Source: Escherichia phage vB_EcoP-101120B2. From it: DNA of 39,899 nt. The notes beneath the pieces were generated by a model. That model worked only from the letters and a program-made list of their open reading frames with translations. It made no database searches and had not been told where the DNA came from. The position numbers and the translations under genes are program-made. Below, in pieces: positions 1 to 35,937 of this stretch. Where the stretch lies: the sequence record MZ234023.1; one strand, written 5' to 3'. Each line of letters begins with the position of its first letter. The stretch's first letter is position 1.

Positions 1-3000
1 ATGCAGGAGCAAGAGGACCGCTCTACGTGGTTCGGTTTCGGTGCGGCTACAGAAGCTGAAGTGAAGAACTCTATGGTCGGCGTGGCTATACGAGCTGGTC
101 AGACTGAGGACTCACTGGATGTCATTGGCGATGTGTTCAACCCAACCAGATGGAACAACCATAAGTGGTCTCGTGAGGAGCTAGACCAGATTCGTAACGC
201 TGGGGTTTTGCCTCAGTATTACGGAGTCATTACTGGTGGCTCTCCTCAGAACCTGACCGAGCTTATTAACTTGGCGCTTGAGAACCAGAAGTTGGACCAA
301 GAGAAGGCCAAGGCTGGGACTGGTGCTCAACTGGCGGCTGGTGTGATTGGTGCTGGCGTGGACCCTCTGACCTACGTTCCTATTGCTGGGCAGGTAGGTA
401 AAGGTGGTAAGCTAGTCAACAAGATGTTCACTGTGGCTGCTCAGTCTGGTGCTCTGGCTGGGGCATCCGAGATTGCTCGAACATCAGTTGCTGGTGGGGA
501 CGCTCATGTTGCTGAAGCTATCCTTGGTGGCGCTCTCTTCGGTGGTGGCATGACTGCTATCGCTGATGGACTAGGCAGAGCCTTAGGTCGCAACACTAAT
601 GAGTTTGCTGGTCCAGCTACACGTTTGGAAGCTCGTGAGACAGCTCGTAACGTTGATGGTCAGGACCTGTCCCGTCTCCCTATTCAGGAAGGTGAGCAGA
701 CCTTTAGTCATCAAGGCGTTAAGTTCGCTGACGTTCCGAATGAGCCGGGAAGTGTACGATTAGAAGACGGTTCAATCCTGATTGGTGAGAACCCTCTGAA
801 CCCTAAGACACGTCAAGTCTTTGACGAAGTGATTGAGCCGGAACGTGCCGCTGCTGGTGTGAACCTTGGTGGACTTACCGAGATTGGCCTGAAGCTGCTT
901 CGGTCTGAGAACCCTGAGATTCGTGGAGTAGCTGCTGACTTAGTGCGTTCACCTACTGGTATGCAGTCTGGGGCCTCAGGTAAAATCGGGACAACTGCGT
1001 CAGACGTGTTCGAGAGACTTCGTTCTGTGGACCATCGGTTCTACAACGACATCGACGATGCGGTTACTGAGGCACTAAAGGACCCGTACTTCCAGACTGC
1101 ATTCTGGCGAGACTCTGGCGCATTCCGTCAGGACATCTACCAGCGTGTGTCTATGGCTATCGAAGATGGTAGCGGAAACCTGAAGGCTGAACTGACTCCG
1201 GGAGAACTGAAAGTCTATGACCTACTGAAGAACCAGTTCGACGCCAAGCGTGAGATGATGGAGAACCCAGCGATGTTTGGTCGTCCAGACGCTCAGTCTA
1301 TCTTTCCGGGTAGCCGCTTCAAGGGAACCTACGTCCCTCATGTGTATAGCAAACAGATGAAGGAGCTGTACATCAAGGAGCTTGGGAGTCCAGAGGCGTT
1401 GCAGGAGGCCATCAAGAAGTCATGGTTGACCAGCTATGCGTCTCGACCTGAAGTCAAGAAACGCGTGGACGAGGCACTTTTAGAGGCTGACCCTACGTTG
1501 ACTCCAGAAGGACTTGCGGCTGCGGTCGATAAGTACGCCAACGATAAGGCTTATGGTATCTCTCACACCGAGCAGTTCGAGCGTTCATCCGTAATGGAGG
1601 AGAACATCAACGGGCTGGTGGGTCTGGAGAACAACAGCTTCCTTGAGGCTCGTAACCTGTTCGATAGCGATATGTCAATCGTTCTTCCTAACGGTCAGAC
1701 CTTCAGTGTCAACAACCTGCGTGAGTGGGACATGGACAAGATTGTCCCGGCCTACAACCGTCGAGTTAATGGTGATATTGCTATCATGGCTGGTACAGGC
1801 AAGACCACGAAGGAAATGAAGGACTTAGTTGAGACCATGATGAACAAGGCTGGCGATGACGGAAAGTTGAAAGGTGAAGTATCTACCTTACGTGACACCC
1901 TGAAGATTCTCACTGGTCGTGCTCGACGTGATGGTGCTGATGATGCGGCCTTCGCTACCGTGATGCGCACGATGACAGACCTATCGTTCTTCGCTAAGAA
2001 TGCCTACATGGGTGTTCAGAACTTAACGGAGATTGGTGGTATGCTGGCTCGTGGTAACGTTCGTGCACTGCTACACGGAGTACCGATGTTCCGTGACCTA
2101 GCCTTCCGTAACAAGAAGGTCGGGGCCTCGGAGATTAAGGACCTGCATAATGTTATCTTCGGTAAAGAATTAGACGACTCAATCCGTCCGTCTAAACAGG
2201 ATGTTATCGACCGTCTGCGATCTTACAGTGACCTTAGTCGTGGTACAGCTACAGCTCTGGGGACTGCTAAGTATTACACTGGTGAACTTGCAGTACGCTC
2301 TCCGTTCACTAAAGTCCTCAACGGTACGACCAACTACCTGTTAGATGCTGGACGTCAAGGCTTCCTGTCTGACATCGTGGAGCATAGCCTGACTGGTAGT
2401 AAGCGTAAGTTCGATGACCGCTGGCTGAAGACCGCTGGTATATCTGGCGAGCAGTGGAGTGGAATTAAGTCCCTAATCCGTGAGTCAGTGACTCGTGGGC
2501 CAGACGGGAAGTACACCATCAAGGATAAGAAGGCGTTCAGTCAGGACCCAAGGGCTATGGACCTGTGGCGTATGGGTGACACCATCGCTGACGAGACGTT
2601 ACTCCGGCCTCATAAGCTGTCAAACATGGACGCCAAGGCTTATGGTCCTCTCGCTAAGACTGTCCTTCAGTTTAAGAACTTCGTCATCAAGTCTATCAAT
2701 GGGAGAACCATGCGAACCTTCTATAACGCCACGAAGAACAACAGAGCGATTGACGCTGCACTGTCGACCGTGATGTCTATGGGTCTGGCTGGTATCTACT
2801 ACATGGCTCAGGCGCATGTCAAGGCTTATGCTATGCAGGATGGTCGAGACCGTGACTACCTTAAGCAAGCTCTGGACCCAACGATGATTGGCTATGCGGC
2901 CCTGTCCCGTAGTTCACATCTTGGTGGCCCACTTGGGGTAGCTAACATTCTGGGAGGCATCGCTGGATATGAGGACACTAAGATGCTCCGTTCGTCTATC

Positions 3001-3303
3001 CTACCTCGTTCTCCTACAGAGAAGCCTGAGCGTGCCATCGCGTATGGTGCAGCTACAAGTGACCCTGTGATGAATGTTGTTGGTAACTTCTTGGAGCAGG
3101 TTCCAGCTTTCGGATATGCTGCTAACGTTGGCGCTTCGGCTTACAACTTGGCTGGCTACCTCAAGGCTGATACTCGTGTCAACGAGCGTGACTACATGAC
3201 CGGGATGTATAATACGTTCCGTGAACTGGTTCCGAACGACCCCATTACCCAGAAGCTGCTGCTTGGAACGTTTGAGGAGCAAGGCATCCACATCAAGGAC
3301 TAA
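1..3303 (+). CDS. Internal virion protein D (gp16-like), C-terminal ~1100 aa; 5' partial at window edge
   Basis: Long uninterrupted ORF. Translation aligns from recalled T7 gp16 residue ~230 onward (e.g. TRWNNHKWSREELDQIRN, VITGGSPQNLTELINLA, GVIGAGVDPLTYVP motifs). Position directly upstream of the tail fibre gene as in T7. Confidence 0.85.
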   Translation: MQEQEDRSTWFGFGAATEAEVKNSMVGVAIRAGQTEDSLDVIGDVFNPTRWNNHKWSREELDQIRNAGVLPQYYGVITGGSPQNLTELINLALENQKLDQEKAKAGTGAQLAAGVIGAGVDPLTYVPIAGQVGKGGKLVNKMFTVAAQSGALAGASEIARTSVAGGDAHVAEAILGGALFGGGMTAIADGLGRALGRNTNEFAGPATRLEARETARNVDGQDLSRLPIQEGEQTFSHQGVKFADVPNEPGSVRLEDGSILIGENPLNPKTRQVFDEVIEPERAAAGVNLGGLTEIGLKLLRSENPEIRGVAADLVRSPTGMQSGASGKIGTTASDVFERLRSVDHRFYNDIDDAVTEALKDPYFQTAFWRDSGAFRQDIYQRVSMAIEDGSGNLKAELTPGELKVYDLLKNQFDAKREMMENPAMFGRPDAQSIFPGSRFKGTYVPHVYSKQMKELYIKELGSPEALQEAIKKSWLTSYASRPEVKKRVDEALLEADPTLTPEGLAAAVDKYANDKAYGISHTEQFERSSVMEENINGLVGLENNSFLEARNLFDSDMSIVLPNGQTFSVNNLREWDMDKIVPAYNRRVNGDIAIMAGTGKTTKEMKDLVETMMNKAGDDGKLKGEVSTLRDTLKILTGRARRDGADDAAFATVMRTMTDLSFFAKNAYMGVQNLTEIGGMLARGNVRALLHGVPMFRDLAFRNKKVGASEIKDLHNVIFGKELDDSIRPSKQDVIDRLRSYSDLSRGTATALGTAKYYTGELAVRSPFTKVLNGTTNYLLDAGRQGFLSDIVEHSLTGSKRKFDDRWLKTAGISGEQWSGIKSLIRESVTRGPDGKYTIKDKKAFSQDPRAMDLWRMGDTIADETLLRPHKLSNMDAKAYGPLAKTVLQFKNFVIKSINGRTMRTFYNATKNNRAIDAALSTVMSMGLAGIYYMAQAHVKAYAMQDGRDRDYLKQALDPTMIGYAALSRSSHLGGPLGVANILGGIAGYEDTKMLRSSILPRSPTEKPERAIAYGAATSDPVMNVVGNFLEQVPAFGYAANVGASAYNLAGYLKADTRVNERDYMTGMYNTFRELVPNDPITQKLLLGTFEEQGIHIKD

Positions 3304-3320
3304 ACTATCACTATAGGAAA
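3299..3320 (+). promoter_or_regulatory. Phage RNAP promoter (phi17 equivalent) upstream of tail fibre gene
   Basis: Sequence TAAACTATCACTATAGGAAA matches the window-wide repeated promoter consensus and resembles T7-group promoters (CACTATAGG core). Confidence 0.7.
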
Positions 3321-3367
3321 CTGGAGGCGCTACCATAGGTCTCCATTTAAATCACAAAGGAGGCATA

Positions 3368-5899
3368 ATGTCCACGATTACACAATTCCCTTCAGGAAAC
3401 ACTCAGTACAGGATTGAGTTCGACTACCTAGCCAGAACGTTTGTTGTTGTTACGCTGGTGAATAGCTCTAACCCTACCCTGAACCGTGTACTGGAAGTTG
3501 GTCGAGATTACCGATTCCTTAATCCAACGATGATTGAGATGTTGGTTGACCAATCAGGTTTCGACATAGTTCGTATTCACCGTCAGACTGGAACTGACTT
3601 AGTGGTAGATTTCAGGAATGGCTCAGTGTTGACAGCTAGTGACCTGACCAATTCAGAGCTTCAGGCTATCCATATTGCAGAAGAAGGTCGAGACCAAACG
3701 GTTGACTTAGCGAAGGAATATGCCGATGCTGCTGGTAGCTCTGCTGGCAACGCTAAGGATAGCGAGGACGAAGCACGCCGAATCGCTGCGAGTATCAGGG
3801 AAGCTGGTCTAATTGGCTATATTACCCGTCGCTCCTTCGAGAAAGGCTACAACGTTACAACATGGAGCGAGGTCCTGCTATGGGAAGAGGATGGTGATTA
3901 TTACCGCTGGGATGGTACGCTTCCAAAGAACGTTCCTGCTGGTTCAACTCCTGAAACTTCCGGTGGGATTGGATTAGGTGCGTGGGTTAGTGTTGGTGAT
4001 GCTGCTTTAAGAAGTCAGATTTCAAACCCGGAAGGGGCAATACTCTACCCGGAATTGCAGATGGCAAGATGGCGTGATGAGGGTGATGTTCGAGGCTGGG
4101 GTGCTAAAGGGGATGGTGTAACAGATAGTACGGAGAATATAGCTGCTTCACTAAGTTCTCAAAAAGCTGTCGTAGCATCAGAAGGTGTATTCTCTAGTTC
4201 TGGTATTAATAGTAATTACTGTAACTTAGACGGTAGGGGTAGTGGCGTGCTAAGTCACCGTTCCAGTACAGGTAACTACTTAGTATTTAACAATCCACGT
4301 ACAGGTCGCTTAAGTAATATTACGGTAGAAAGTAATAAGGCGACTGATACAACTCAGGGACAGCAGGTATCTCTTGCGGGTGGAAGCGATGTTACTGTAA
4401 GTGACGTTAACTTCTCAAACGTTAAAGGTACTGGTTTCAGTTTAATCGCATACCCTAATGATGCGCCACCTGATGGACTTATGATTAAAGGCATTCGAGG
4501 TAGCTATTCCGGCTATGCTACTAATAAGGCAGCCGGATGCGTACTTGCTGACTCCTCAGTTAACTCCCTCATAGATAACGTTATTGCTAAGAACTACCCT
4601 CAGTTCGGAGCAGTAGAGTTGAAAGGTACAGCCAGTTACAACATAGTCAGTAATGTTATAGGGGCAGATTGCCAGCATGTAACTTACAACGGCACTGAAG
4701 GGTCAATAGCTCCTTCTAATAACATTATAAAGGGGGTGATGGCTAATAACCCTAAGTATGCAGCGGTTGTTGCAGGCAAAGGAAATACTAACTTAATCTC
4801 AGACGTGCTCGTAGATTACTCAACTTCTGATGCTAGCCAGGCTCATGGCGTTACCGTAGAAGGGTCTGATAACGTCATAAATAATGTGCTTATGTCAGGA
4901 TGTGATGGTACTAACTCTTTAGGACAAGGGCAGACTGCTACAATTGCACGCTTTATAGGTACAGCTAATAACAACTATGCGTCTGTATTTCCTAGCTACA
5001 GTGCTACAGGTGTTATTACTTTCGAATCCGGCTCTACCCGTAACTTCGTAGAGGTAAAACACCCTGGCAGGAGAAACGACCTTCTCAGTTCTGCTAGTAC
5101 TATTGACGGTGCAGCTACTATTGACGGCACTAGTAATAGTAACGTAGTGCACGCACCTGCCTTAGGGCAGTACATAGGTAGTATGTCAGGTAGGTTCGAA
5201 TGGTGGATTAAGTCCATGTCACTCCCTTCAGGCGTTCTTACTTCTGCTGATAAGTACAGAATGCTTGGGGATGGTGCTGTGTCATTAGCTGTAGGTGGTG
5301 GTGCATCTTCTCAAGTTCGACTATTTACTTCTGATGGTATTTATCGGACAGTGTCCCTCACCAACGGCAACGTGCGTCTTCCTACCAGTAGCACAGGTTA
5401 TTTGCAGTTAGGTTCTAATGCAATGACCCCAGATAGTACTAATACATACGCATTAGGTTCCGCAAGTCGAGCATGGTCTGGCGGTTTTACTCAATCAGCA
5501 TTCACTGTTGTCTCAGATGCTAGGGATAAAACAGAGCCTCTTAATATCTCAGATGCTTTACTGGATGCTTGGTCTGAAGTTGACTTTGTGCAGTTTCAGT
5601 ACTTGGACCGAATTGAGGAGAAGGGTGCAGACTCAGCTAGATGGCACTTCGGCATCATCGCTCAGCGAGCTAAGGAGGCCTTCGAACGTCACGGTATAGA
5701 TGCACATCGCTATGGCTTCCTGTGCTTCGACAGTTGGGATGATGTATACGAGGAAGATGCCAATGGCTATCGTAAACTGATTACACCAGCAGGTTCCCGC
5801 TACGGTATTCGTTACGAGGAAGTACTGATATTAGAGGCTGCGTTGATGCGGCGTACTATTAAGCGTATGCAGGAAGCATTAGCTGTTATGTCTAAGTGA
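3368..5899 (+). CDS. Tail fibre / tailspike: gp17-like N-terminal adaptor + putative beta-helix depolymerase domain + C-terminal intramolecular chaperone (peptidase S74-like)
   Basis: 843-aa ORF with AAAGGAGG RBS. N-terminal ~150 aa resemble T7 gp17 (YLARxFVVVTL, LVDFxxGSxL, AEEGRD). Central region has the GWGAKGDGVTD motif typical of pectate-lyase-like tailspikes. C-terminus has the SDARDK motif (5513-5530) and an ~125-aa tail like autoproteolytic chaperone domains of endosialidase-type spikes. Confidence 0.85.
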   Translation: MSTITQFPSGNTQYRIEFDYLARTFVVVTLVNSSNPTLNRVLEVGRDYRFLNPTMIEMLVDQSGFDIVRIHRQTGTDLVVDFRNGSVLTASDLTNSELQAIHIAEEGRDQTVDLAKEYADAAGSSAGNAKDSEDEARRIAASIREAGLIGYITRRSFEKGYNVTTWSEVLLWEEDGDYYRWDGTLPKNVPAGSTPETSGGIGLGAWVSVGDAALRSQISNPEGAILYPELQMARWRDEGDVRGWGAKGDGVTDSTENIAASLSSQKAVVASEGVFSSSGINSNYCNLDGRGSGVLSHRSSTGNYLVFNNPRTGRLSNITVESNKATDTTQGQQVSLAGGSDVTVSDVNFSNVKGTGFSLIAYPNDAPPDGLMIKGIRGSYSGYATNKAAGCVLADSSVNSLIDNVIAKNYPQFGAVELKGTASYNIVSNVIGADCQHVTYNGTEGSIAPSNNIIKGVMANNPKYAAVVAGKGNTNLISDVLVDYSTSDASQAHGVTVEGSDNVINNVLMSGCDGTNSLGQGQTATIARFIGTANNNYASVFPSYSATGVITFESGSTRNFVEVKHPGRRNDLLSSASTIDGAATIDGTSNSNVVHAPALGQYIGSMSGRFEWWIKSMSLPSGVLTSADKYRMLGDGAVSLAVGGGASSQVRLFTSDGIYRTVSLTNGNVRLPTSSTGYLQLGSNAMTPDSTNTYALGSASRAWSGGFTQSAFTVVSDARDKTEPLNISDALLDAWSEVDFVQFQYLDRIEEKGADSARWHFGIIAQRAKEAFERHGIDAHRYGFLCFDSWDDVYEEDANGYRKLITPAGSRYGIRYEEVLILEAALMRRTIKRMQEALAVMSK

Positions 5900-5925
5900 G
5901 TAATACTGGTACGGTATTTCGCACA

Positions 5926-6123
5926 ATGAAATCGTTGAACACACTGACGAGGAGGGTAATGTCACTACTACGGAAGAACCTGTATACACCGAGGTGGTTA
6001 TTCACGAAGAGGGTGAGGAGTGGGGGTGTTCGGCCTGACGGAATTTTCTTTGCTGAAGCCGCTTATCAGAGAAGAAAACTGGAAAGAATCGAAGCCAGAC
6101 TTTCTGCTCTTGAACAGAAGTAA
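5926..6123 (+). CDS. Hypothetical small basic protein (start uncertain: GTG 5896, ATG 5926 or ATG 5959)
   Basis: ORF in a ~330-bp gap between tail fibre and holin that T7 lacks. GAGGAGGG precedes ATG 5959 but with very short spacing. Highly basic, Arg/Lys-rich product. Confidence 0.3.
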   Translation: MKSLNTLTRRVMSLLRKNLYTPRWLFTKRVRSGGVRPDGIFFAEAAYQRRKLERIEARLSALEQK

Positions 6124-6233
6124 TAAACAAAACCATTTTGCCATTAGGTTGGTGGGGTAGAGACTAACTACACGCTAACCAACGTATGTAACAACTTTGG
6201 GTCACGGACGACCCGCTTTAAACTGGAGGTTTT

Positions 6234-6428
6234 ATGATTGAGTTAGACTTCAAGAATGAGGTCCTTAAAGCCTCTCCTATCGTCGGGACCGCTGCGGCTG
6301 ATGGTGCCAGTCGGTTCTTCTTCGGACTTACACTGAACGAATGGTTCTACGTTGCAGCTATCGCGTACACCGTTGTCCAGATTGGTGTGCTAGTCTACAA
6401 AACGATTAAAGGAGGTGGTAAAACATGA
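6234..6428 (+). CDS. Holin (gp17.5-like)
   Basis: 64-aa product MIELDFKNEVLKASPIVGTAAAD...WFYVAAIAYTVVQIG closely resembles recalled T7 gp17.5, with one hydrophobic segment. GGAGG RBS. Confidence 0.8.
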   Translation: MIELDFKNEVLKASPIVGTAAADGASRFFFGLTLNEWFYVAAIAYTVVQIGVLVYKTIKGGGKT

Positions 6429-6688
6429 CGCAGATGGACTTAGAGAAGTTCCTCTTGATGCTGGATACTGAACGTGCTAGACTCATGCTGCAAGACCTGC
6501 GGGATGACTCTAAGCGTTCACCTCAGCTTTACAACGCCATTGAGAAGCTACTGGCTCGTCACAACTTCGTGCTAAGTAAGGTGTCTGTGGACGAGAAGAC
6601 GCTGGCTGATATGGAGGCCCTGAACGCAGAGTACGATAAGGTGCTTTCAGCGACTGAGGATAATGACACCGGGTATGGCGTTCAATAA
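6425..6688 (+). CDS. Terminase small subunit (gp18-like)
   Basis: 87-aa product with FLLMLDTERARLMLQDL...RSPQLYNAIEKLLARH resembling T7 gp18. ATGA overlap with the holin stop. Confidence 0.85.
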   Translation: MTQMDLEKFLLMLDTERARLMLQDLRDDSKRSPQLYNAIEKLLARHNFVLSKVSVDEKTLADMEALNAEYDKVLSATEDNDTGYGVQ

Positions 6689-6694
6689 GTGTTA

Positions 6695-6736
6695 GACTCA
6701 AGGTCATTACTATATGTAGTGGCCTTTATGGTTAAC
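6695..6736 (+). promoter_or_regulatory. Conserved structured RNA element, probable RNase III processing site
   Basis: Motif GACTCAAGGTCAT...GTGGCCTTTATGGTTAAC, one of three near-identical copies (also 16393 and 23617). Resembles T7 R1.1-type RNase III substrates from memory. Confidence 0.4.
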
Positions 6737-6789
6737 ACTAACTAGTGGAGGAGACTCTACGTGAAATCTGATAAACCGGGAGGGCAACT

Positions 6790-7233
6790 ATGCTCGAATT
6801 TTTAAAGAGAGCGGCTCCGTGGTTACTTGCAGCAGTGATGTTTGCTGGTGGCTACCACACCGCTAACAATAAGTGGGAGGCTAAGGTAAATGCAGAATAC
6901 ACCTCGAATCTTAAGGCATCGGAGGATACAAGGCTTGCTGTCCAAGCTGAAGTCAACAAAGTGTCCAAACGGTTTCAGGACGAAATGTCCTCGCTGGAAG
7001 GCAGCACTGACAGGATTATTGCTGACCTTCAGTCTGACAATAAGCGGCTGCGCATCCGAGTCAAACCTACGAGTGGAACCACGCAAAGTGACGGTCGATG
7101 CGTCATTGATGGTTACGCCGAACTTGACGAACGAGATGCTAAACGTCTTATCTCCATCGGACTGAAAGGGGACGCTTGGATTAAAGCACTACAGGATACT
7201 ATCCGCAAACTTCAACAAGACAAGGAGAAATGA
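6790..7233 (+). CDS. Rz-like i-spanin (gp18.5-like)
   Basis: 147-aa product beginning MLEFLKRAAPWLLAAVMFAGG (N-terminal TM) and ending with DAKRLISIGLKGDAWIKALQDTIRKLQ, like recalled T7 gp18.5. Confidence 0.85.
   Translation: MLEFLKRAAPWLLAAVMFAGGYHTANNKWEAKVNAEYTSNLKASEDTRLAVQAEVNKVSKRFQDEMSSLEGSTDRIIADLQSDNKRLRIRVKPTSGTTQSDGRCVIDGYAELDERDAKRLISIGLKGDAWIKALQDTIRKLQQDKEK
6890..7165 (+). CDS. Rz1-like o-spanin (gp18.7-like) embedded in the +1 frame of the Rz gene
   Basis: ORF nested in Rz. Product contains a lipobox-like LTISGC followed by ASES and SLMVTPNLTNEMLNV, matching recalled T7 gp18.7. Exact start uncertain. Confidence 0.7.
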   Translation: MQNTPRILRHRRIQGLLSKLKSTKCPNGFRTKCPRWKAALTGLLLTFSLTISGCASESNLRVEPRKVTVDASLMVTPNLTNEMLNVLSPSD

Positions 7234-7670
7234 TGCTCAGTGATTCGTATTTCTATGATGAGTCCAGTAAGTCTGGCCTGAAGTCCCTGCGTTCTGGTAA
7301 GGATGTGGGGTGTGTGGGAAACCACGGGTATTATCAGGTAGGAACTCGACGTCATGGACTCCTGCTGGCCCATAGAGTCGTCTGGGAGCTAACCAACGGT
7401 CCTATACCAGAAGGGATGGAGATTGACCATATCGACCGCTGCCGGACTAACAACAGGCTGGACAACCTCCGGCTAGTTACTTCAAGCGAGAACTCCTGCA
7501 ACACCTCAGGACATTCCGACTCAAAGACTGGAGTTAAGAACATATCGTTCCATCAGAATGGCTACGCTATCGAGGTCATGCGTAAGGGGGTCCGTATGCG
7601 AACAACACGTCCTACTTTAGAGGAGGCTATCTCTGTCCGGGACCTAATGCTGGAGGGACTCTATGTCTAA
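7230..7670 (+). CDS. HNH homing endonuclease with C-terminal AP2-like DNA-binding domain
   Basis: 146-aa ORF with ATGA overlap to Rz stop and 8-nt overlap with large terminase start. HNH-like motif [26 protein letters not shown]-terminal [33 protein letters not shown] resembles AP2 domains. No counterpart at this position in T7. Confidence 0.75.
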
Positions 7671-9429
7671 GAAAACACCTGCTGAAAGACAGGCTGAAAT
7701 GACCCAAAGGATGAGGGACGACTTCGTGTTCTTCATCTTCGTTCTCTGGAAAGCGCTGAGCCTTCCGGTTCCAACCAGATGTCAGATAGATATGTGTAAG
7801 AAGCTGGCTGCTGGCGATAACCGACGCTTCATCCTTCAGGCGTTCCGAGGTATTGGCAAATCGTTTCTGACCTGTGGTTTCGTGGTCTGGAAGCTATGGA
7901 ATAACCCAGACTTGAAGTTCATGATTGTGTCGGCCTCAAAGGAGCGAGCCGATGCTAACTCCATCTTCATCAAGCGAATCATCGACCTCATGCCTCAGCT
8001 TCAGGAACTCAAACCTAAGCAGGGACAGCGAGATGCGGTTATTAGCTTCGACGTGGGACCTGCCAAGCCAGACCACTCACCTTCGGTTAAGTCCGTTGGT
8101 ATCACTGGTCAGTTGACTGGTAGTCGTGCTGACATCCTGATTGCCGATGACGTGGAGGTTCCGAACAACTCAGCGACTCAGGCTGCACGAGACCGTCTAT
8201 CAGAGCTTGTGAAAGAGTTCGACGCTATCCTGAAGCCGGGAGGTACGATCATCTATCTGGGTACTCCTCAGAACGAGATGACCCTGTACCGTGAGCTGGA
8301 AGGTCGTGGGTACACCACTACTATCTGGCCCGCTCGTTATCCACGCGACAGGAAGGACTGGCAGTCTTACGGCGACCGTCTGGCTCCTATGCTTCAGGCA
8401 GAGCTGGAAGAGGACCCTGAGTCCTTCTACTGGCGTCCGACTGATGAAGTACGCTTCGATGATACGGACCTGAAGGAACGTGAGCTGTCCTACGGTAAAG
8501 CTGGCTTCGCTCTACAGTTCATGCTTAACCCGAACCTGAGTGATGCCGAGAAGTACCCTCTTAAGCTCCGTGACCTTATCGTAGCCGACTTGGACCCAGC
8601 GTCCAGCCCAATGGCCTACCAATGGTTGCCGAACCCTCAGAACAAGCGTGAGGACGTTCCTAACGTTGGACTCATGGGTGACTCGTACCACACGTATCAG
8701 ACTGTAGGTTCTGCCTTCAGCTCATACACCCAGAAGATTCTGGTCATTGACCCTAGTGGTCGTGGTAAGGATGAAACTGGATATGCGGTACTGTACCAGC
8801 TCAACGGCTACATCTTCGCTATGGAAGTTGGTGGCATGCGTGGTGGTTATGAATACTCTACGCTGGAAGCCTTGGCTAAGATTGGTCGTAAGTGGAGGGT
8901 AAACGAATACGTCATTGAGGGTAACTTCGGTGATGGTATGTACCTTGAGCTATTCAAGCCTGCATCGGCCCGTATCCATCCTGCGGCTGTAACTGAAGTG
9001 AAGAGTAAGGGTCAGAAAGAACTACGCATCTGTGACGTTCTGGAGCCTATCATGGGGTCTCACAGACTTATCGTTAACGCTGCTGCTATCGTCCAAGACT
9101 ACCAGACAGCCTCTGACAAGGATGGTGTTCGTAACCCTATCTACTCTCTATTCTATCAGATGACACGTATCTCTCGTGAGCGTGGAGCCTTGGCACACGA
9201 TGACCGACTTGATGCGCTGGCTATCGGTGTACAGTTCTTCGTTGAGTCGATGGCTAAGGATGCCAACAAAGGCGAACGTGAAGTCACTGAGGAATGGCTG
9301 GAGGAACAGATGGAGAACCCACGGAAAGGCTTCGAGTCCATCCACACTGAGTTCTGGGACAATGGGGTCCGGGTAACTCACGATACGGACGACGAGCTTG
9401 GACTAGGGTCATACGTTACGTTCCACTAG
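7663..9429 (+). CDS. Terminase large subunit (gp19-like)
   Basis: 588-aa ORF, size and sequence similar to recalled T7 gp19 (ATPase and nuclease regions). GGAGGG RBS. Confidence 0.9.
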
Positions 9430-9524
9430 CTGAATGAATAATTATAGGTGAAAGCCGCATGAATACGCGGTTAGTAACCTATAGTTACTACCAGTCTAAC
9501 ATACTGTTTTACAAGGAGTTTGGA

Positions 9525-9547
9525 CTTAACTATCACTATAGGGAAGA
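9525..9547 (+). promoter_or_regulatory. Phage RNAP promoter (phiOR equivalent)
   Basis: CTTAACTATCACTATAGGGAAG downstream of terminase, position equivalent to T7 phiOR. Confidence 0.65.
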
Positions 9548-10121: not shown

Positions 10122-10335
10122 TCTCACAGTTCAAGAACATCAAGTCTCCCCCATAGGCCTCTTTCAGTCCAGACCAAAGGCCCTACCCCAGTCTATCATA
10201 AGGTTGGACCGATGGTCAAGACTTCAGGTCAACGATAGGTTGTGGCTATGGCTTAGGGAAGGACGATAGGTTGGGACTATGGGTCTGTCTTTGAGTCTCT
10301 ATCTGTATCAGACCTTGAGTCACTACCTACAGTCT
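10122..10335 (+). repeat. Probable direct terminal repeat / concatemer junction (single copy); physical left end inferred near 10122
   Basis: Begins TCTCACAGT and contains CCCCCATAGG, GGGTCTGTCTTTGAGT, CCTTGAGT and TACAGTC, which recall the T7 left-end terminal repeat in the same order. Boundaries approximate. Confidence 0.35.
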
Positions 10336-10393
10336 AACTACCTACAGTCATCGACCATCGGTAATGCCGCTACCTACAGTCATCGACCTACGG
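10323..10393 (+). repeat. Short direct repeats CTACCTACAGTC(ATCGACC), three copies, with related GACCTACRGT copies at 10045-10070
   Basis: Direct observation. Analogous in position to the short CCTAAAG repeats flanking the T7 terminal repeat. Confidence 0.5.
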
Positions 10394-10507
10394 TTAATAG
10401 ACACAAGGATATAGACTTAAGGTCTAATACATGTTAGTCAAAGACTATATCCTCTTAGTCACTATGGGGCCGACGATAGCTTAATCAATATTATTTAAGA
10501 TTACCTA

Positions 10508-10648: not shown

Positions 10649-10686
10649 TTGACAAGATGTACCGACTTAAAGTAGTATGTACCACA
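10649..10686 (+). promoter_or_regulatory. Candidate strong host sigma70 early promoter (A2/A3-like)
   Basis: TTGACA at 10649-10654, 18-bp spacer, TAGTAT -10. Flanking sequence resembles the T7 A2/A3 region (GTAGACAGCCTGATAAGTC ... GTTGACAA). Confidence 0.5.
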
Positions 10687-11254: not shown

Positions 11255-11761
11255 ATGGAACGTAATGCTAACGCATACTATGAGCTGCTGGCTGCAACCG
11301 TTGAGGCATTTATCGAGCGTATTCAGTACGACCACCTGACTCAAGATGATGACTACAGCGATGCGCTGCATGAGGTCGTAGACGGTCAGGTTCCACACTA
11401 TTACCACGAGATTTTTACGGTGATGGCTGCTGATGGTATAGACCACGAGTTCGAAGACTCTGGGCTGATGCCTGAAACCAAGGACGTAACGCGTATCCTA
11501 CAAGCTCGCATCTATGAGGCGCTTTATAACGATGTGTCTAATAGCTTGGATGTAGTCTGGTTTGAGGATGAAGAGGCAGAAGAAGAGGATGAATATTGGG
11601 TAGTTGACGCTAAAACAGGCGCAATAATTGTGCAAGCTGTAGCTCTTGAGGTCGCTACTGCATGTACCAAGGTTAACTATGCGGCAGGTCGCCACCTGAA
11701 GGTGGAAGACATCAATGATAACGTAGTGTTCGACCCTGCGGCTGAGGACTGCGAGCGATGA
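11255..11761 (+). CDS. ocr: Ocr-like anti-restriction protein (gp0.3) with ~50-aa C-terminal extension
   Basis: GAGAGGA RBS. Residues ~30-105 ([44 protein letters not shown]) closely match recalled T7 Ocr, followed by an acidic stretch. The ORF continues to 168 aa, whereas T7 Ocr is 117 aa. Confidence 0.8.
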
Positions 11762-12433: not shown

Positions 12434-12523
12434 ATGAGTGTGGGATATTGGGTCTGCCTAGCGCCAGTTATCTGGATGATAGGCTATGGGTTATACGACT
12501 GTATTAAACGGAAATCACTATGA
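12434..12523 (+). CDS. Hypothetical 29-aa hydrophobic peptide
   Basis: TAGGAG RBS. ATGA overlap with the next ORF. Hydrophobic sequence. Confidence 0.3.
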   Translation: MSVGYWVCLAPVIWMIGYGLYDCIKRKSL

Positions 12524-12717
12524 GTCTTGCACTATTGATAGCCATAGGCTATGGACTTATCGCATACGTGCTGGTGAGAGACATCAACAAGGCACGTAAA
12601 GTCTATAAATTCAACTATGTACGTATGGTCCGCTGGACTGTACGTCAACCTAACGGACGATTCCTGCGCAATTTAGCGAACGTCTGGGATATAGCAACTC
12701 TTGGGAGCAAACTGTAA
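12520..12717 (+). CDS. Hypothetical small membrane protein
   Basis: 65-aa ORF with N-terminal hydrophobic helix (SLALLIAIGYGLIAYVLV). Overlapping start and stop with neighbours. Confidence 0.5.
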   Translation: MSLALLIAIGYGLIAYVLVRDINKARKVYKFNYVRMVRWTVRQPNGRFLRNLANVWDIATLGSKL

Positions 12718-13043
12718 TGAACAAGTCATACGGGATTAATCTGGTACACTCTATGGACGCAGAAATGAACATGTTAAGCCTACTGGCTACCGGGTATCGT
12801 CACGGAACGTCAAGTCACACCGCACGTCAACAGCAGGAGAGGGACCGTGTACTACAGGCGCGACTCAGGGCAGAGGGCCATAAGTCCGAACTGATGTGTC
12901 TGGCGTATGGCGGACGACCGATCACTGACGATGGTAAACTTCTGGTATCAGGCTGGAAGGCGATAGACCAACGGTCAACCATCAAGCACACGACTCACGG
13001 TGACTTCAGCCGTCTCCACGCTAACCCACTGATATGCAAGTGA
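12717..13043 (+). CDS. Hypothetical early protein
   Basis: 108-aa ORF with GGGAG RBS, occupying the position of T7 gene 0.7. No kinase motifs recognised. Confidence 0.55.
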   Translation: MNKSYGINLVHSMDAEMNMLSLLATGYRHGTSSHTARQQQERDRVLQARLRAEGHKSELMCLAYGGRPITDDGKLLVSGWKAIDQRSTIKHTTHGDFSRLHANPLICK

Positions 13044-13050
13044 TTATGAC

Positions 13051-13072
13051 TTAACTATCACTATAGGACTCA
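13051..13072 (+). promoter_or_regulatory. Phage RNAP promoter immediately upstream of the RNAP gene
   Basis: TTAACTATCACTATAGGACTC, 70 bp upstream of the gene 1 start codon. Followed by a repeat-rich leader (AAGTGAAAGAC x2, GACTTTAAGT x2). Confidence 0.6.
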
Positions 13073-13140
13073 AGGTCTAAGACTCCAAGTGAAAGACCAA
13101 AGAGACTTTAAGTGAAAGACTAATAACAAGGACTTTAAGT

Positions 13141-15822
13141 ATGAGCGTCATCTCTATTGACAAACACGACTTCTCTGATGTGTCGAACGCCATTGAGCCG
13201 TTTAACCTGCTGGCTGACCACTACGGGCAAGACCTTGCAGTCAAACAGCTTCAGCTTGAGCATGAGGCCTACACTGAAGGTGAGCGACGTTTCATCAAGA
13301 ACCTTGAGCGTCAGACCGAGCGAGGGGAACTGGCAGACAATCAGGTCGCCAAGCCTTTGATGCAGACTCTGGTTCCTAAGATTGCGCAAGCCGTCAAGGA
13401 GTGGCACGAAGGTCCAGACGGGAAGCTGTCAACCTCACGTCCGAGCGTAGCGTTCACCATGTTAAGCACTGAAGAGAAGGCCGTCAAGGACCGCTCTCTT
13501 CGCATCTCCTGCGAGTCTGCTGCGGTTATCATACTGAAGGTCATCCTCTCCAAGCTGGTCAAGCCTGAAGGTATACCGATTACACCGATGGCCTCCGCGA
13601 TAGGTCGCACACTTGAGGATGAAATCCGATTCGGTCGCATTCGTGACAAGGAGAAGGAGCACTTCAAGAAGGCGATAGCTGATAACCTGAACAAGAGAGC
13701 CGGGGCATCATACAAGAAAGCCTACATGCAAGCGGTCGAGACATCCATGCTGGAGCAAGGCCAACTAGAAGATGCGTGGGGAACTTGGAGTCCGACCGAG
13801 GCTGTCCACGTTGGAATCAAGATGCTGGAGATTGTCATACAGTCAACACAACTGGTCGAGCTTAAGCGTTACGGTGCTGGCAATGCAGCGGCTGACGTTG
13901 AGATGGTCCACCTGTCAGACTTCTGGGTCAAGAAGATGGCACAACGAGGATTCAGCCTTGCGGGTATCGCCCCAGTCTACCAGCCTTGCGTCGTTCCGCC
14001 TAAGCCGTGGACTGGTGTCGTAGGCGGTGGGTATTGGGCCAAAGGTCGAAGACCATTGCCACTGATTCGCTTAGGGTCTAAGTCTGCGGTAGCACGTTAT
14101 GAAGACGTATACATGCCTGAAGTCTATGAAGCTGTGAATATCATCCAGAATACACCTTGGAAAGTGAACAAGAAGGTATTGGACGTGGTGAACAGGGTCG
14201 AGAAGCTGAACAACACGCCTATTAATGACATCCCTCAGATGGAACCGCTGAAGCCTGAGGACTATGCTGGTGAAACCGAGGAGGAACTCAAGGCATGGAA
14301 GAAGGCTGCTGCTGGTATCTATCGCCGCGAGAAGGCCAGACAGTCACGCAGATTATCACTGAGCTTTATCGTTAACCAAGCAAACAAGTTCTCTCAGTTC
14401 AAGGCCATCTGGTTCCCGTACAACATGGATTGGCGAGGTCGTGTCTACGCTGTCCCGATGTTCAACCCTCAGGGTAACGACATGCAGAAGGGGCTCCTGA
14501 CTCTGGCAGTCGGCAAGCCTATTGGTGCTGACGGTTTCAAATGGCTGAAGGTCCACGGTGCAAACTGTGCGGGTGTCGATAAAGTCACCTTCGATGAGCG
14601 CATCAAGTGGGTGGAAGACAACCACGAAAACATCATGGCTGCTGCTAAGGCACCGATGGATAGCATTGAGTGGTGGGGCAAGTTAGACTCTCCGTTCTGC
14701 TTCCTAGCGTTCTGCTTCGAGTATGCTGGCGTAATGCACCACGGCTTGTCTTACTCCTGCTCGCTGCCGATAGCGTTCGATGGGTCCTGCTCTGGGATTC
14801 AGCACTTCAGCGCTATGCTTCGCGACCACATCGGTGGACATGCAGTAAACCTGACGCCATCCGGTAAGGTCCAAGACATCTACCGCATCGTGTCTGACCG
14901 CATTGAGGAGGAGCTTAAAGTCCTACTGGTTAACGGTACGGACAACGAGATGGTAACTCACGAGGACAAGAAAACTGGTGAGATTACCGAGCGTCTCAAG
15001 CTGGGGACACGAGAGCTTGCCCGTCAGTGGCTGACCTACGGTATGTCACGAAAGGTCACTAAGCGTTCGGTCATGACTCTGGCCTACGGGTCGAAAGAGT
15101 ACGGCTTCGCAGACCAAGTTTACGAGGACATCGTGATGCCAGCGATTGACTCAGGGTCTGGCGCTATGTTCACTGAACCAAGCCAAGCAGCTCGCTTCAT
15201 GGCTAAGATGATTTGGGAAGCTGTGAGTGTGACCGTAGTTGCTGCGGTTGACGCGATGAAATGGCTTCAGGGTGCTGCCAAGCTGCTTGCTGCTGAAGTG
15301 AAGGACAAGAAGACTGGAGAAATCCTGAAGCCTTGTCTTCCGGTACACTGGGTCACACCTGATGGTTTCCCTGTCTGGCAGGAATACCGAAAGAAGGACA
15401 CCACTCGTCTGAACCTGATGTTCTTAGGGTCATTCAACCTTCAGCCTACCGTCAACAAAGGCACGAAGAAAGAGCTGGACAAGCACAAGCAGGAGTCAGG
15501 CATTAGCCCGAACTTCGTCCACTCACAAGATGGTAGCCACCTCCGCAAGACTGTAGTCCACACGCACCGCAAATATGGCGTGATGTCATTCGCAGTGATT
15601 CACGATAGCTTCGGGACCATCCCGGCTGACGCTGAGTATCTGTTCCGTGGAGTCCGTGAGACGATGGTCGAGACCTACCGCGACAACGATGTGCTGCTTG
15701 ACTTCTACGAGCAGTTTGAATACCAGCTTCACGAGAGCCAGAGAGACAAGTTGCCTGAGCTTCCTAAGAAAGGTAAACTGAATATCGAAGACATCTTGTC
15801 TTCAGACTTTGCATTCGCTTAA
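13141..15822 (+). CDS. Single-subunit DNA-dependent RNA polymerase (gp1)
   Basis: 893-aa ORF. Extensive identity to recalled T7/T3 RNAP (YMPEVYEAVNIIQNTPWKVNKKVL, WFPYNMDWRGRVYAVPMFNPQGNDM, HGANCAGVDKV, FAVIHDSFGTIPADA, C-terminal SDFAFA). Confidence 0.95.
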   Translation: MSVISIDKHDFSDVSNAIEPFNLLADHYGQDLAVKQLQLEHEAYTEGERRFIKNLERQTERGELADNQVAKPLMQTLVPKIAQAVKEWHEGPDGKLSTSRPSVAFTMLSTEEKAVKDRSLRISCESAAVIILKVILSKLVKPEGIPITPMASAIGRTLEDEIRFGRIRDKEKEHFKKAIADNLNKRAGASYKKAYMQAVETSMLEQGQLEDAWGTWSPTEAVHVGIKMLEIVIQSTQLVELKRYGAGNAAADVEMVHLSDFWVKKMAQRGFSLAGIAPVYQPCVVPPKPWTGVVGGGYWAKGRRPLPLIRLGSKSAVARYEDVYMPEVYEAVNIIQNTPWKVNKKVLDVVNRVEKLNNTPINDIPQMEPLKPEDYAGETEEELKAWKKAAAGIYRREKARQSRRLSLSFIVNQANKFSQFKAIWFPYNMDWRGRVYAVPMFNPQGNDMQKGLLTLAVGKPIGADGFKWLKVHGANCAGVDKVTFDERIKWVEDNHENIMAAAKAPMDSIEWWGKLDSPFCFLAFCFEYAGVMHHGLSYSCSLPIAFDGSCSGIQHFSAMLRDHIGGHAVNLTPSGKVQDIYRIVSDRIEEELKVLLVNGTDNEMVTHEDKKTGEITERLKLGTRELARQWLTYGMSRKVTKRSVMTLAYGSKEYGFADQVYEDIVMPAIDSGSGAMFTEPSQAARFMAKMIWEAVSVTVVAAVDAMKWLQGAAKLLAAEVKDKKTGEILKPCLPVHWVTPDGFPVWQEYRKKDTTRLNLMFLGSFNLQPTVNKGTKKELDKHKQESGISPNFVHSQDGSHLRKTVVHTHRKYGVMSFAVIHDSFGTIPADAEYLFRGVRETMVETYRDNDVLLDFYEQFEYQLHESQRDKLPELPKKGKLNIEDILSSDFAFA

Positions 15823-15837
15823 CAACAGGAGAAGTAT

Positions 15838-16068
15838 ATGTCAATGAAACTTGTAGCACACAACAGGGTATTCAACGATGGGTCGGGACGTTGCCATGTA
15901 GAGCTGACTTATAAGGATTTAATCATTCTCCGAGACAGATTACAGTCGGGTGTGACTGGGTGGATTCAACCTAACGAGTACAACCTTATAGCTTCGATTG
16001 ATGAAGTTCTTAACGCGTGGATGGAAGACGAGCGCATTCAGTATCCGTCATTCCCTCTAATTAGATAA
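15838..16068 (+). CDS. Hypothetical protein
   Basis: 76-aa ORF with AGGAG RBS directly after gene 1. T7 has no gene here. Confidence 0.55.
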   Translation: MSMKLVAHNRVFNDGSGRCHVELTYKDLIILRDRLQSGVTGWIQPNEYNLIASIDEVLNAWMEDERIQYPSFPLIR

Positions 16069-16294: not shown

Positions 16295-16371
16295 CAGACA
16301 TACAGTTACTGGCCCTGTGGCTGGGAGCACTCGCAGTATTCACTTTAATCCAACGCAGAAGAGGTTAACCC

Positions 16372-16392
16372 TAAACTATCACTATAGGCTTA
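16372..16392 (+). promoter_or_regulatory. Phage RNAP promoter (phi1.1 equivalent)
   Basis: TAAACTATCACTATAGGCTTA. Confidence 0.7.
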
Positions 16393-16436
16393 GACTCAAG
16401 GTCATGACTCAAAGTCGTGGCCTTCATGATTAACCC
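16393..16436 (+). promoter_or_regulatory. Probable RNase III processing site (R1.1 equivalent)
   Basis: GACTCAAGGTCATGACTCAAAGTCGTGGCCTTCATGATTAACC, second copy of the conserved motif, between promoter and gene 1.1 as in T7. Confidence 0.4.
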
Positions 16437-16465
16437 TAAATAAACACTACTGGAGATTTAACCGT

Positions 16466-18181: not shown

Positions 18182-18215
18182 AACCCAGTGGTCTTAGGAC
18201 TGCTGGGTTTCTTTG
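18182..18215 (+). terminator. Intrinsic terminator, candidate early terminator (TE equivalent)
   Basis: AACCCAGUGG / CUGCUGGGUU stem (~10 bp with G-U pairs), 8-nt loop, followed by TTTCTTTG. Lies at the end of the early/ligase region. Confidence 0.55.
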
Positions 18216-18237
18216 CTTCTGGGCCACCAGCTAGACC

Positions 18238-18259
18238 CTAAGCTATCACTATAGGACAA
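18238..18259 (+). promoter_or_regulatory. Phage RNAP promoter
   Basis: TAAGCTATCACTATAGGACAA. Confidence 0.7.
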
Positions 18260-19047: not shown

Positions 19048-19206
19048 ATGACTGACGTAGAGAAGAAGTACATCGTGGAGCTTGAGGGTCGCATTCAGTC
19101 CTTCGAGGTTCCGGTGTACGCAAAGTCTCTTGAAGAGGCTACCCTGAAGTCCCAAGAGTATGAGGACGCTGGGTTTGTGGTCGGACGGATTCGCCCTGAG
19201 ACCTAA
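19048..19206 (+). CDS. gp2-like inhibitor of host RNA polymerase
   Basis: 52-aa ORF (below cutoff) with [25 protein letters not shown]...GFVVGRIRP aligns with recalled T7 Gp2 (SFEVPIYAETLDEA...GFEVTRVRP). Confidence 0.65.
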
Positions 19207-19224
19207 ACTATCACTGTAGGACAG
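19204..19224 (+). promoter_or_regulatory. Phage RNAP promoter (phi2.5 equivalent), one mismatch
   Basis: TAAACTATCACTGTAGGACAG, with TATAGG replaced by TGTAGG. Confidence 0.55.
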
Positions 19225-21367: not shown

Positions 21368-21580
21368 ATGATTAAACTTATTGAATTTCTGGGTCGTCTG
21401 GTTGTGCGTGGCTATTCTCGTGCTGCGAGTGTGGAACGAAAAGTCGCATCTGCTGCGGCTAAAGGTGCGGAAGCGGCTGCTGCGGAAGCGGATAGTCTGC
21501 GCATCAAGTCTCTGGACGCTGGCCTACGTGCCAAAGGTCTTGACAAGAAAGCCGAGCAACTGAAAGGCTTCTTCAGCTAA
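21368..21580 (+). CDS. Hypothetical protein, Ala/Lys-rich
   Basis: 70-aa ORF with TAAGGAG RBS. Confidence 0.5.
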   Translation: MIKLIEFLGRLVVRGYSRAASVERKVASAAAKGAEAAAAEADSLRIKSLDAGLRAKGLDKKAEQLKGFFS

Positions 21581-21600
21581 ACTATCACCTTAGGGATGAG
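21578..21600 (+). promoter_or_regulatory. Degenerate phage promoter-like sequence
   Basis: TAAACTATCACCTTAGGGATGAG has two mismatches in the CACTATAGG core. Followed by a GGGATGAGACC/GGTCTTGTCCC hairpin and a T-rich run. Confidence 0.3.
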
Positions 21601-21643: not shown

Positions 21644-21722
21644 GTCTCCATAGCTCAAACGGTAGAGCGGTGGGTCGTGATGGCCTATTGCGATTAGGGT
21701 TCGAATCCCCGTGGAGACGCCA
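21644..21722 (+). tRNA. tRNA-like element with canonical acceptor stem, D-arm and T-arm but ambiguous anticodon arm
   Basis: GTCTCCA pairs perfectly with TGGAGAC, followed by G and CCA. D-arm TAGCTCAAACGGTAGAGC. T-loop GGGTTCGAATCCC. The 26 nt between D-arm and T-arm do not fold by eye into a canonical 5-7-5 anticodon arm with U33. Confidence 0.45.
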
Positions 21723-23613: not shown

Positions 23614-23616
23614 GTC

Positions 23617-23658
23617 TAGACTCAAGGTCATTCATAGCGAGTGGCCTTTATGATTAGA
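23617..23658 (+). promoter_or_regulatory. Probable RNase III processing site upstream of DNA polymerase gene
   Basis: AGACTCAAGGTCATTCATAGCGAGTGGCCTTTATGATTAGAC, third copy of the conserved motif. Confidence 0.4.
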
Positions 23659-23677
23659 CTAAAGCGGAGGATTAACC

Positions 23678-27233: not shown

Positions 27234-27330
27234 CATGTACAAGTGGTTCGGGTCGAACAACCGCCCTAAACACTGAGTCTAACCGATAGTCATATCCTAT
27301 CAATCCAACAGTCATCCATAGGTGAAATAC

Positions 27331-27352
27331 TAAACTATCACTATAGGGACTT
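27331..27352 (+). promoter_or_regulatory. Phage RNAP promoter (phi6.5 equivalent)
   Basis: TAAACTATCACTATAGGGACTT. Confidence 0.7.
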
Positions 27353-27412
27353 TAGGACCTAAGATATGACTATAAGATAGACTTTAGTCTTAACTTAAAG
27401 AGGAGATTCAAG

Positions 27413-30154: not shown

Positions 30155-30172
30155 ACTATCACTATAGGAACA
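30152..30172 (+). promoter_or_regulatory. Phage RNAP promoter (phi9 equivalent)
   Basis: CTAAACTATCACTATAGGAAC overlapping the portal stop. Followed by a nested inverted repeat (GGAACAAC...GTTGTTCC) at the transcript 5' end. Confidence 0.7.
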
Positions 30173-31128: not shown

Positions 31129-31130
31129 GA

Positions 31131-31153
31131 CTAAACTATCACTATAGGGAGAC
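31131..31153 (+). promoter_or_regulatory. Phage RNAP promoter (phi10 equivalent)
   Basis: CTAAACTATCACTATAGGGAGACC, followed by GGGAGACCAAGAGACAGACTCAAGGTTTCCC, analogous to the T7 phi10 leader hairpin. Confidence 0.75.
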
Positions 31154-35887: not shown

Positions 35888-35914
35888 CTTATTGAAGGGC
35901 CTATAGATTTACCT

Positions 35915-35937
35915 TAACTATCACTATAGGGACTATA
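35915..35937 (+). promoter_or_regulatory. Phage RNAP promoter (phi13 equivalent), flanked by a 10-bp perfect inverted repeat
   Basis: TTAACTATCACTATAGGGACT; GGGCCTATAG (35897-35906) and CTATAGGCCC (35933-35942) bracket it. Confidence 0.7.

Follow-up and report, generated by a model that had tools for sequence, protein, structure and literature searches.

Promoters for the phage RNA polymerase (RNAP) have been described upstream of the RNAP gene itself. In Pseudomonas phage LUZ100, a phage-specific transcription start was mapped just before the RNAP gene, and the authors of that work put forward a positive feedback loop (PMC10134795). This promoter (phi1) is immediately upstream of the RNAP gene, as in the phage that we describe here, and the first polymerase arises from read-through by the host RNAP (PMC10134795). 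However, LUZ100 is a distant relative of T7, with an integrase and with a MarR-like repressor that is thought to gate the promoter, while our phage lacks a LUZ100-like lysogeny module. Also, the start in LUZ100 was mapped experimentally, while ours is predicted. In Vibrio phage phiA318, the promoter phi-A8 lies upstream of the kinase and RNAP genes, which was read as "autoregulation" (PMC4099482). The RNAP gene is separated from phi-A8 by the kinase gene; phiA318 is more akin to SP6/K1E-type phages, and its promoter comes from prediction alone.

Other cases are recorded in annotations. GenBank has a "predicted promoter" at the same place in Citrobacter phage CR44b (Kayfunavirus, HG818823: 1814-1836) and in Citrobacter phage CR8 (Caroctavirus, HG818824: 3356-3378). 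(The records give this "predicted promoter" feature only, and the word "promoter" is absent from the genome announcement, PMC4038870.) CR44b, which is locus L021 in our survey, has an RNAP that is 98% identical to that of our phage and a +1 at -75 relative to gene 1. CR8 has its own class of promoter, with the +1 at -102. There are no promoter features in the two K1F records or in the record for Escherichia phage vB_EcoP-PM129. We also found promoters of the phage's own type close to gene 1 in the Pseudomonas phages MR1 (Ghunavirus) and 71PfluR64PP (Pifdecavirus). Promoters are annotated in Vibrio phage ICP3 and Pectobacterium phage Q19, and none of these is directly before the RNAP gene. The original prediction had contrasted a phage promoter at this place with the layout of T7. 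Since this arrangement is annotated in two of these phages, described in two others, and present in MR1 and 71PfluR64PP, it is already known rather than new: it is conserved across the genus, and is real but ordinary.

The same circuit has been considered for T7. An engineered T7 "autogene", with the polymerase gene directly behind its own promoter, has reportedly been built (Dubendorff and Studier 1991). A passage in PMC3737178, citing Endy et al. 2000, describes "auto-amplification feedback" in models of T7 with gene 1 relocated. In both the autogene and the genomes with gene 1 relocated, the RNAP gene lies behind its own promoter, which leads to auto-amplification, as we propose below for K1F-type phages. 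But those constructs are artificial, while the K1F-type layout is natural and conserved.

In wild-type T7, the layout is different. The original prediction held that the first phage promoter of T7 lies downstream of gene 1. In the RefSeq record, this is not so: phiOL is at 405, rightward and upstream of the host promoters A1-A3, while gene 1 is at 3171, or 2.77 kb further on. The same record has the minor E. coli promoter C at 3113, phi1.1A at 5848, and the terminator TE at 7588, after gene 1.3.

We analyzed a stretch of 39,899 nucleotides from Escherichia phage vB_EcoP-101120B2 (MZ234023.1), which we call the window. The window holds the genome of a K1F-like coliphage (Kayfunavirus, Studiervirinae) in circularly permuted form. 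Over positions 12500-15900, the identity is 100% with vB_EcoP-PM129 and its siblings, and 94-98% with many further Kayfunavirus records. The genes are in the T7-type order, with an Ocr-like gene 0.3, small early genes, the RNAP gene, gene 1.2, the ligase gene, and the endonuclease gene. The RNAP shares 62.8% identity with T7 RNAP, and 100% with the one annotated in vB_EcoP-PM129. The features in and around the region upstream of gene 1 are:

10649 to 10678, + strand: best candidate for a sigma-70-like early promoter, TTGACA-18-TAGTAT (10/12 positions in a consensus scan; a consensus match only)
11255 to 11761: Ocr-like gene 0.3, with the small early genes next
12717 to 13043, + strand: upstream early open reading frame, gp0.38-like, 108 amino acids (matches phrog_7066, E 7e-45)
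13049 to 13071, + strand: predicted K1F-type phage RNAP promoter, -17 to +6 in T7 numbering, with predicted start G13066
13066 to 13140, + strand: predicted leader of gene 1 transcripts made by the phage RNAP, 75 nt, 64% purine, 37% G+C, unstructured
13080 to 13100, + strand: leader direct repeat, copy 1, AGACTCCAAGTGAAAGACCAA
13103 to 13123, + strand: leader direct repeat, copy 2, AGACTTTAAGTGAAAGACTAA, 21 nt, 86% identical to copy 1
13128 to 13143, + strand: ribosome-binding region and start codon, AAGGACTTTAAGTATG, with Shine-Dalgarno AAGGA 8 nt before the ATG
13141 to 15822, + strand: gene 1, single-subunit RNAP, an open reading frame of 893 amino acids with its ATG at 13141
18182 to 18209, + strand: intrinsic terminator-like hairpin after the ligase gene, at the position of TE in T7

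The gp0.38-like reading frame stops 5 nt short of the gene-1 promoter; K1F and CR8 have a homologue that bears the annotation gene 0.38. The physical ends of the genome are somewhere near 9.9-10.3 kb of the permuted record. Near the presumed left end, at 10300-10400, there are three close copies of CTACCTACAGTC, which resemble the (acctacagtcaac)3 repeat that is annotated in CR8.

We then examined the promoter motif. The window contains ten copies of AACTATCACTATAGG with at most 3 mismatches, all on the + strand, versus 0.00 expected in 100 dinucleotide shuffles. (The 19-mers start at 3301, 9526, 13051, 16372, 18239, 19204, 27331, 30152, 31132, and 35914.) The motif's total information content is 36.8 bits, and it has the pattern of promoters for T7-group (Studiervirinae) RNAPs: about 23 bp, from -17 to +6, repeated on the transcribed strand before genes. 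Besides the gene-1 site, the predicted phage promoters are:

3299 to 3321, + strand: before the tail-fibre gene
9524 to 9546, + strand: phiOR position, after the terminase gene
16370 to 16392, + strand: phi1.1 position, the first promoter past gene 1, with an RNase III hairpin of the R1.1 type behind it at about 16390-16445
18237 to 18259, + strand: middle region
19202 to 19224, + strand: before gene 2.5
27329 to 27351, + strand: late, with a GGGA start
30150 to 30172, + strand: late
31130 to 31152, + strand: before the major capsid gene, with a GGGAGA start
35912 to 35934, + strand: late

At gene 1, the 19-mer TTAACTATCACTATAGGAC spans 13051-13069 on the + strand, so the phage promoter that had been claimed there is indeed one of the ten copies. 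Its core, CACTATAGG at 13059-13067, fits CACTATA at -7 to -1 followed by the initiating GG at +1/+2. The predicted +1, G13066, is 75 nt ahead of the ATG, and 71 bp separate the 19-mer from gene 1 (70 bp had been claimed). The description of this site as a full-consensus copy is right for -13 to +2, where it is identical to the consensus of the ten sites. But it has T at -14, where 7/10 sites have A, and its start is GGAC instead of GGGA, which late-type sites have. With a leave-one-out matrix, the gene-1 site scores 31.0 bits, and the ten sites range from 26.6 to 35.9. It ranks seventh overall and first among the four early- or middle-position sites. A run of 20 bases, GACTTAACTATCACTATAGG, which includes the minority T at -14, is the same in the gene-1 site and the phiOR-position site (13048-13067 and 9523-9542). 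This could reflect common descent or a shared special role. Between these two sites, a matrix scan found nothing above 9 bits, that is, no left-end promoter. We also considered a sigma-70 promoter at the gene-1 site, like the minor promoter C of T7 (at 3113), and rejected it: there is no + strand consensus match near 13050.

Two weaker promoter-like sites lie elsewhere in the window. One (15.5 bits) is at 27360, 29 nt past the promoter at 27331. The other is ACTATCACCTTAGGGA at 21578-21600 (20.6 bits), which is before gene 4 and is followed by a hairpin. Between this hairpin and the primase/helicase gene is a tRNA-like gene (21644-21722, + strand), which matches the Rfam tRNA model with 38.7 bits, is called as Ser(tga) by ARAGORN, and has an encoded CCA. 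Its anticodon arm is odd, as the minimum-energy fold has a 10-bp stem and a 5-nt loop. Only part of the genus has it (34 phage records), and its annotation varies between tRNA-Thr, tRNA-Pseudo(GTG), and tRNA-OTHER. Relatives such as locus L012 lack the insertion of about 85 bp that bears it.

If the gene-1 site were a chance match or a relic that is no longer used, then it should not be maintained across relatives or follow the specificity of the RNAP. We have several pieces of evidence that it does both.

First, we compared 80 viral contigs from IMG/VR that encode relatives of this RNAP, with a promoter matrix derived for each contig. In all 21 loci whose RNAP is at least 79% identical, a promoter matching that contig's own consensus lies upstream of gene 1, with the +1 at -75 to -102 from the ATG. 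In K1F, the identical site is at 2476-2494, and gene 1 is at 2566. The original prediction had suggested a comparison with relatives; with K1F and the window included, it gives 23/23 K1F-type genomes with the promoter at this position. Also, the entire 151-bp region is present in 220 GenBank phage records, as compared to 219 records with an RNAP that is at least 80% identical.

Second, the site changes along with the RNAP. There are three classes of specificity loop and promoter. In the K1F type, the promoter is AACTATCACTATAGG, with the specificity bases AACTATCAC, and the specificity loop of the RNAP is RLNLMFLGSFNLQ. In the group of Cronobacter phage GW1 (L016 and L042), the promoter is AACCCTCACTATAGG, with the bases AACCCTCAC and the loop RLDLMFLGTFRLQ. 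In Citrobacter phage CR8 (L014), the promoter is GGAAGGTACACTATAGG, with the bases GGAAGGTACAC and the loop RIKLMFMG-VQYR. In all three classes, the gene-1 site bears its own phage's bases at -8 to -12. The flanking sequences of the K1F and GW1 types remain alike (ctgatatgcaagt... and GGACTCAAGGTC...). The RNAPs of the GW1 group are 88% identical to the window's, yet all of their promoters carry the T3-type AACCCTCAC, and their loop matches that of a T3-like locus (L040) at T7 positions 748 and 756 (D and R), which we take to be the positions that discriminate between T7 and T3 promoters. The GW1 group is a natural example of promoter specificity having switched in a genome that is K1F-like in other respects. 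Independently of this, a promoter with the K1F consensus is activated by a T7 RNAP into which the K1F specificity loop has been built (PMC3458549).

Because the gene-1 site has been rewritten with each change in RNAP specificity, we conclude that it is used by the RNAP. Given the motif statistics, the conservation of its position, and the co-variation, the site is very probably a working promoter. Conversely, an unused chance match or relic is extremely unlikely: the chance expectation is zero, the position is shared by every K1F-type genome examined, the same layout recurs in two further genera (Ghunavirus and Pifdecavirus), and the co-variation of its specificity bases in three classes effectively refutes it.

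The strength of the promoter may have been tuned. In five loci of one clade (L010, L011, L012, L018, and L019), the gene-1 site is CACTAAAGG, with an A at -2 that is unlike their own consensus. Judging from this variant and from the GGAC start, which is also found at middle-region sites, the gene-1 promoter may be tuned to moderate strength. It may even be deliberately weak, so that the feedback is small.

We then asked how far this layout departs from that of other Studiervirinae. Among the surveyed T7-like, T3-like, and K11-type loci, no phage promoter was found within 400 nt of gene 1. Instead, nearly all of the T7- and K11-type loci have one or two promoters 2.2-3.4 kb upstream of gene 1, at the phiOL position. 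For nine loci, the seed-based approach did not detect promoters, and we examined these by repeated-word analysis. Seven of the nine were resolved and have variant cores (ending in CACTATT/CACTATG or CACTAAC); none of the seven has a phage promoter beside gene 1, and all of them have an R1-type RNase III hairpin directly before gene 1, as T7 does. The repeated-word analysis found no promoter motif in the other two (L030 and L039). (Locus L039 has eleven tandem 21-bp units, GGAACCACTGAGTATCATTGA/TAA, at about 207-437, or -1538 to -1308 from its RNAP gene, in the left-end region of a T7 relative.) So, the expectation based on T7 needs to be corrected: across the subfamily, phage promoters usually occur upstream of gene 1, and what differs is the distance (75 nt versus 2.4-3.4 kb) rather than presence or absence. 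T7 and K1F-type phages differ in where the upstream phage promoter is and in whether the early genes are in or out of its transcript.

T7's phiOL resembles the gene-1 promoter in that it is rightward, is upstream of gene 1 with no terminator for the phage polymerase in between, and has a leader with ACTTAAAG-type repeats. But phiOL is 2.77 kb upstream and precedes the host promoters A1-A3, so its transcript would take in the entire early region. At this left-end position, K1F-type phages lack a promoter.

What lies directly before gene 1 also differs. T7-, Berlin-, and T3-like loci have an R1-type hairpin (…TCTTCAAGGTC…GGCCTTTATAGA…) and no phage promoter in the 100 nt before gene 1. In the window, there is no extended hairpin of the R1 or R1.1 type directly upstream of gene 1. 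The leader begins with the 5' half-motif GACTCAAGGTC, but it lacks the 3' partner GGCCTTxATGATT that is present in the real hairpins of the window (at 6695, 16393, and 23619). Its fold energy is -13.5 kcal/mol (z = +1.0, or less structured than shuffled sequences), and the wider region from 12980 to 13145 is not significantly structured either (z = -0.32). On these grounds, we rejected an RNase III site in the leader. A search against Rfam, at gathering thresholds, gave no match to a known RNA family in the region. Elsewhere, the window has three hairpins of T7's R1.1 type (AGACTCAAGGTCAT…GTGGCCTTxATGATTA), at about 6690-6750, 16390-16445, and 23615-23675, which correspond to the positions of R18.5, R1.1, and R4.7 in T7. 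With one mismatch allowed, GACTCAAGGTC occurs 18 times in the window, versus 1 expected.

The exchange of hairpin for promoter brings up another role for the site. The promoter might serve to keep gene 1.05-1.3 and the genes beyond transcribed, or might give the mRNA of gene 1 a defined 5' end in place of the one made at R1, with no meaningful amplification of the RNAP. The presence of an R1-type hairpin in T7-, Berlin-, and T3-like loci where K1F-type phages have the promoter fits with this, and so does the half-motif that the leader retains without its partner. The -2 variant in one clade, which suggests modest strength, points the same way. However, any transcript that starts at 13066 would contain gene 1 and its ribosome-binding site, so some autogenous expression seems unavoidable, and the genes further on already have a phage promoter to serve them, at 16372. 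We consider it distinctly doubtful that either of these roles is the main one.

The leader itself has unusual features. The original prediction mentioned internal direct repeats, and these are present: a 21-nt pair that is 86% identical, and four units of GACT(N1-3)AAG[TG] within 75 nt, as compared to 27 such units on the + strand of the entire 39.9 kb. The motif CTTTAAG is enriched in the leader. Counting CTTAAG-like motifs (CT2-3A2-3G) in the gene-1 leaders of different lineages, we found 2 in the K1F type, 2 in GW1, 4 in CR8, 3 in MR1, and 3 in 71PfluR64PP. In T7, there are 4 in the phi1.1B leader and 2 in the phiOL leader, while the 75 nt upstream of gene 1 have none. (The leaders counted include 13066-13140 in the window, 3374-3459 in L083, 1698-1809 in L086, 4519-4598 in L087, and 405-497 and 5923-6006 in L082.) These motifs could be a translation enhancer, an element of a replication origin, or a binding site for a protein.

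The comparison to phi1.1B extends to the end of the leader. The window's leader ends, start codon included, in the 15-mer AGGACTTTAAGTATG, and T7 has these same 15 bases as the ribosome-binding region and start of its gene 1.1 (T7 5995-6009). That region closes the phi1.1B leader, and it is the best match to our leader within T7 1-8000 (E 6e-4). Both leaders have a GGA start, are A/T-rich, and contain CTTAAG or CTTTAAG repeats. On the other hand, phi1.1B is downstream of gene 1 and drives gene 1.1, its leader is far more A/T-rich, and the two leaders have no long alignment past the 15-mer.

In T7, phi1.1A/B is the primary origin of replication, and phiOL is regarded mainly as a secondary origin. 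The origins of T7 are reportedly modules of a promoter and an A/T-rich stretch that prime DNA synthesis (Saito et al. 1980; Rabkin and Richardson 1988). The transcripts from phi1.1B are both primers and mRNA, and the A/T-rich stretch at the primary origin is about 79% A+T over about 60 bp. By analogy, the promoter and the repeat-containing, A/T-rich leader at gene 1 could be mainly, or also, a replication origin, the counterpart of these T7 modules. In that case, gene 1 would be transcribed only incidentally, or the one transcript would be put to two uses.

The identical end of the phi1.1B leader is consistent with an origin, as is the enrichment of CTTAAG-like motifs in the gene-1 leaders of every lineage with the promoter as well as in the phi1.1B and phiOL leaders. 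Also, K1F-type phages have a single promoter and an RNase III hairpin at the phi1.1 position, with no second promoter and no A/T-rich stretch there, and they lack a phiOL-type promoter at the left end. But as a ribosome-binding region, the 15-mer in common could have arisen by convergence. Furthermore, the leader reaches only 68% A+T over 60 nt, well short of the figure for T7's primary origin. This maximum is the seventh-richest such window in the genome; it is equalled by the leader at the phi1.1 position and exceeded by the leaders of three late promoters, which rules out exceptional A/T-richness as a signature of an origin. Overall, a replication origin at this site seems unlikely, and it would be compatible with feedback.

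A more specific form of this idea is that the gene-1 promoter and its CTTAAG-repeat leader are the primary-origin module of phi1.1B, transposed, so that one transcript would prime replication and amplify the RNAP. This strikes us as improbable. If it were true, then the onset of replication would be coupled to auto-amplification of the RNAP, and the CTTAAG-like repeats, which five lineages and both T7 origins have in common, would have a function in this module.

We favor self-amplification of the polymerase. Specifically, 13049-13071 is probably a working middle ("class II"-like) promoter that starts transcription at G13066 and makes RNAP synthesis self-amplifying. The host RNAP would initiate at sigma-70 promoters near the left end (the candidate at 10649-10678) and read through the early genes into gene 1, which would supply the first molecules of phage RNAP. 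(A scan of the window found no terminator-like sites between 10.7 kb and gene 1.) These molecules would then initiate at the gene-1 promoter and produce a transcript with an unstructured, purine-rich leader of 75 nt and a good ribosome-binding site. Synthesis of the RNAP would thereby amplify itself and go on after the host polymerase is shut off, and the same transcript would also run into the downstream genes. Late in infection, the feedback would presumably be damped by the phage lysozyme, as in T7.

Positive feedback is expected because there is no terminator-like site or hairpin between the +1 at 13066 and gene 1. As the leader is also unstructured and AAGGA lies 8 nt before the ATG, transcripts from 13066 should carry a translatable gene 1. 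The claim that the promoter would create positive feedback agrees with the layout, which is that of the autogene: the RNAP gene is preceded, in the same orientation, by its cognate promoter, and the interval holds no terminator-like site. Self-amplifying transcription is the simplest consequence of that layout, with initiation at 13066, the size of the feedback, and its late damping all being inferences. A literature search found no data on transcript starts in Kayfunavirus. A caveat is that, while conservation and co-variation show use of the promoter, they do not show that it is maintained for self-amplification; transcription of downstream genes or priming of replication would conserve it equally.

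These findings about the gene-1 promoter do not open a long-standing question, but they do have some implications. K1F-type RNAP genes that are cloned with their native upstream region, for use in orthogonal expression, would bring a self-activating promoter along. If the promoter is active, then the "autogene" circuit, which engineers built and modelled for T7, exists in nature in K1F-type phages, where it is conserved. These phages could then be used to study how a self-amplifying polymerase is restrained within a 20-minute infection.
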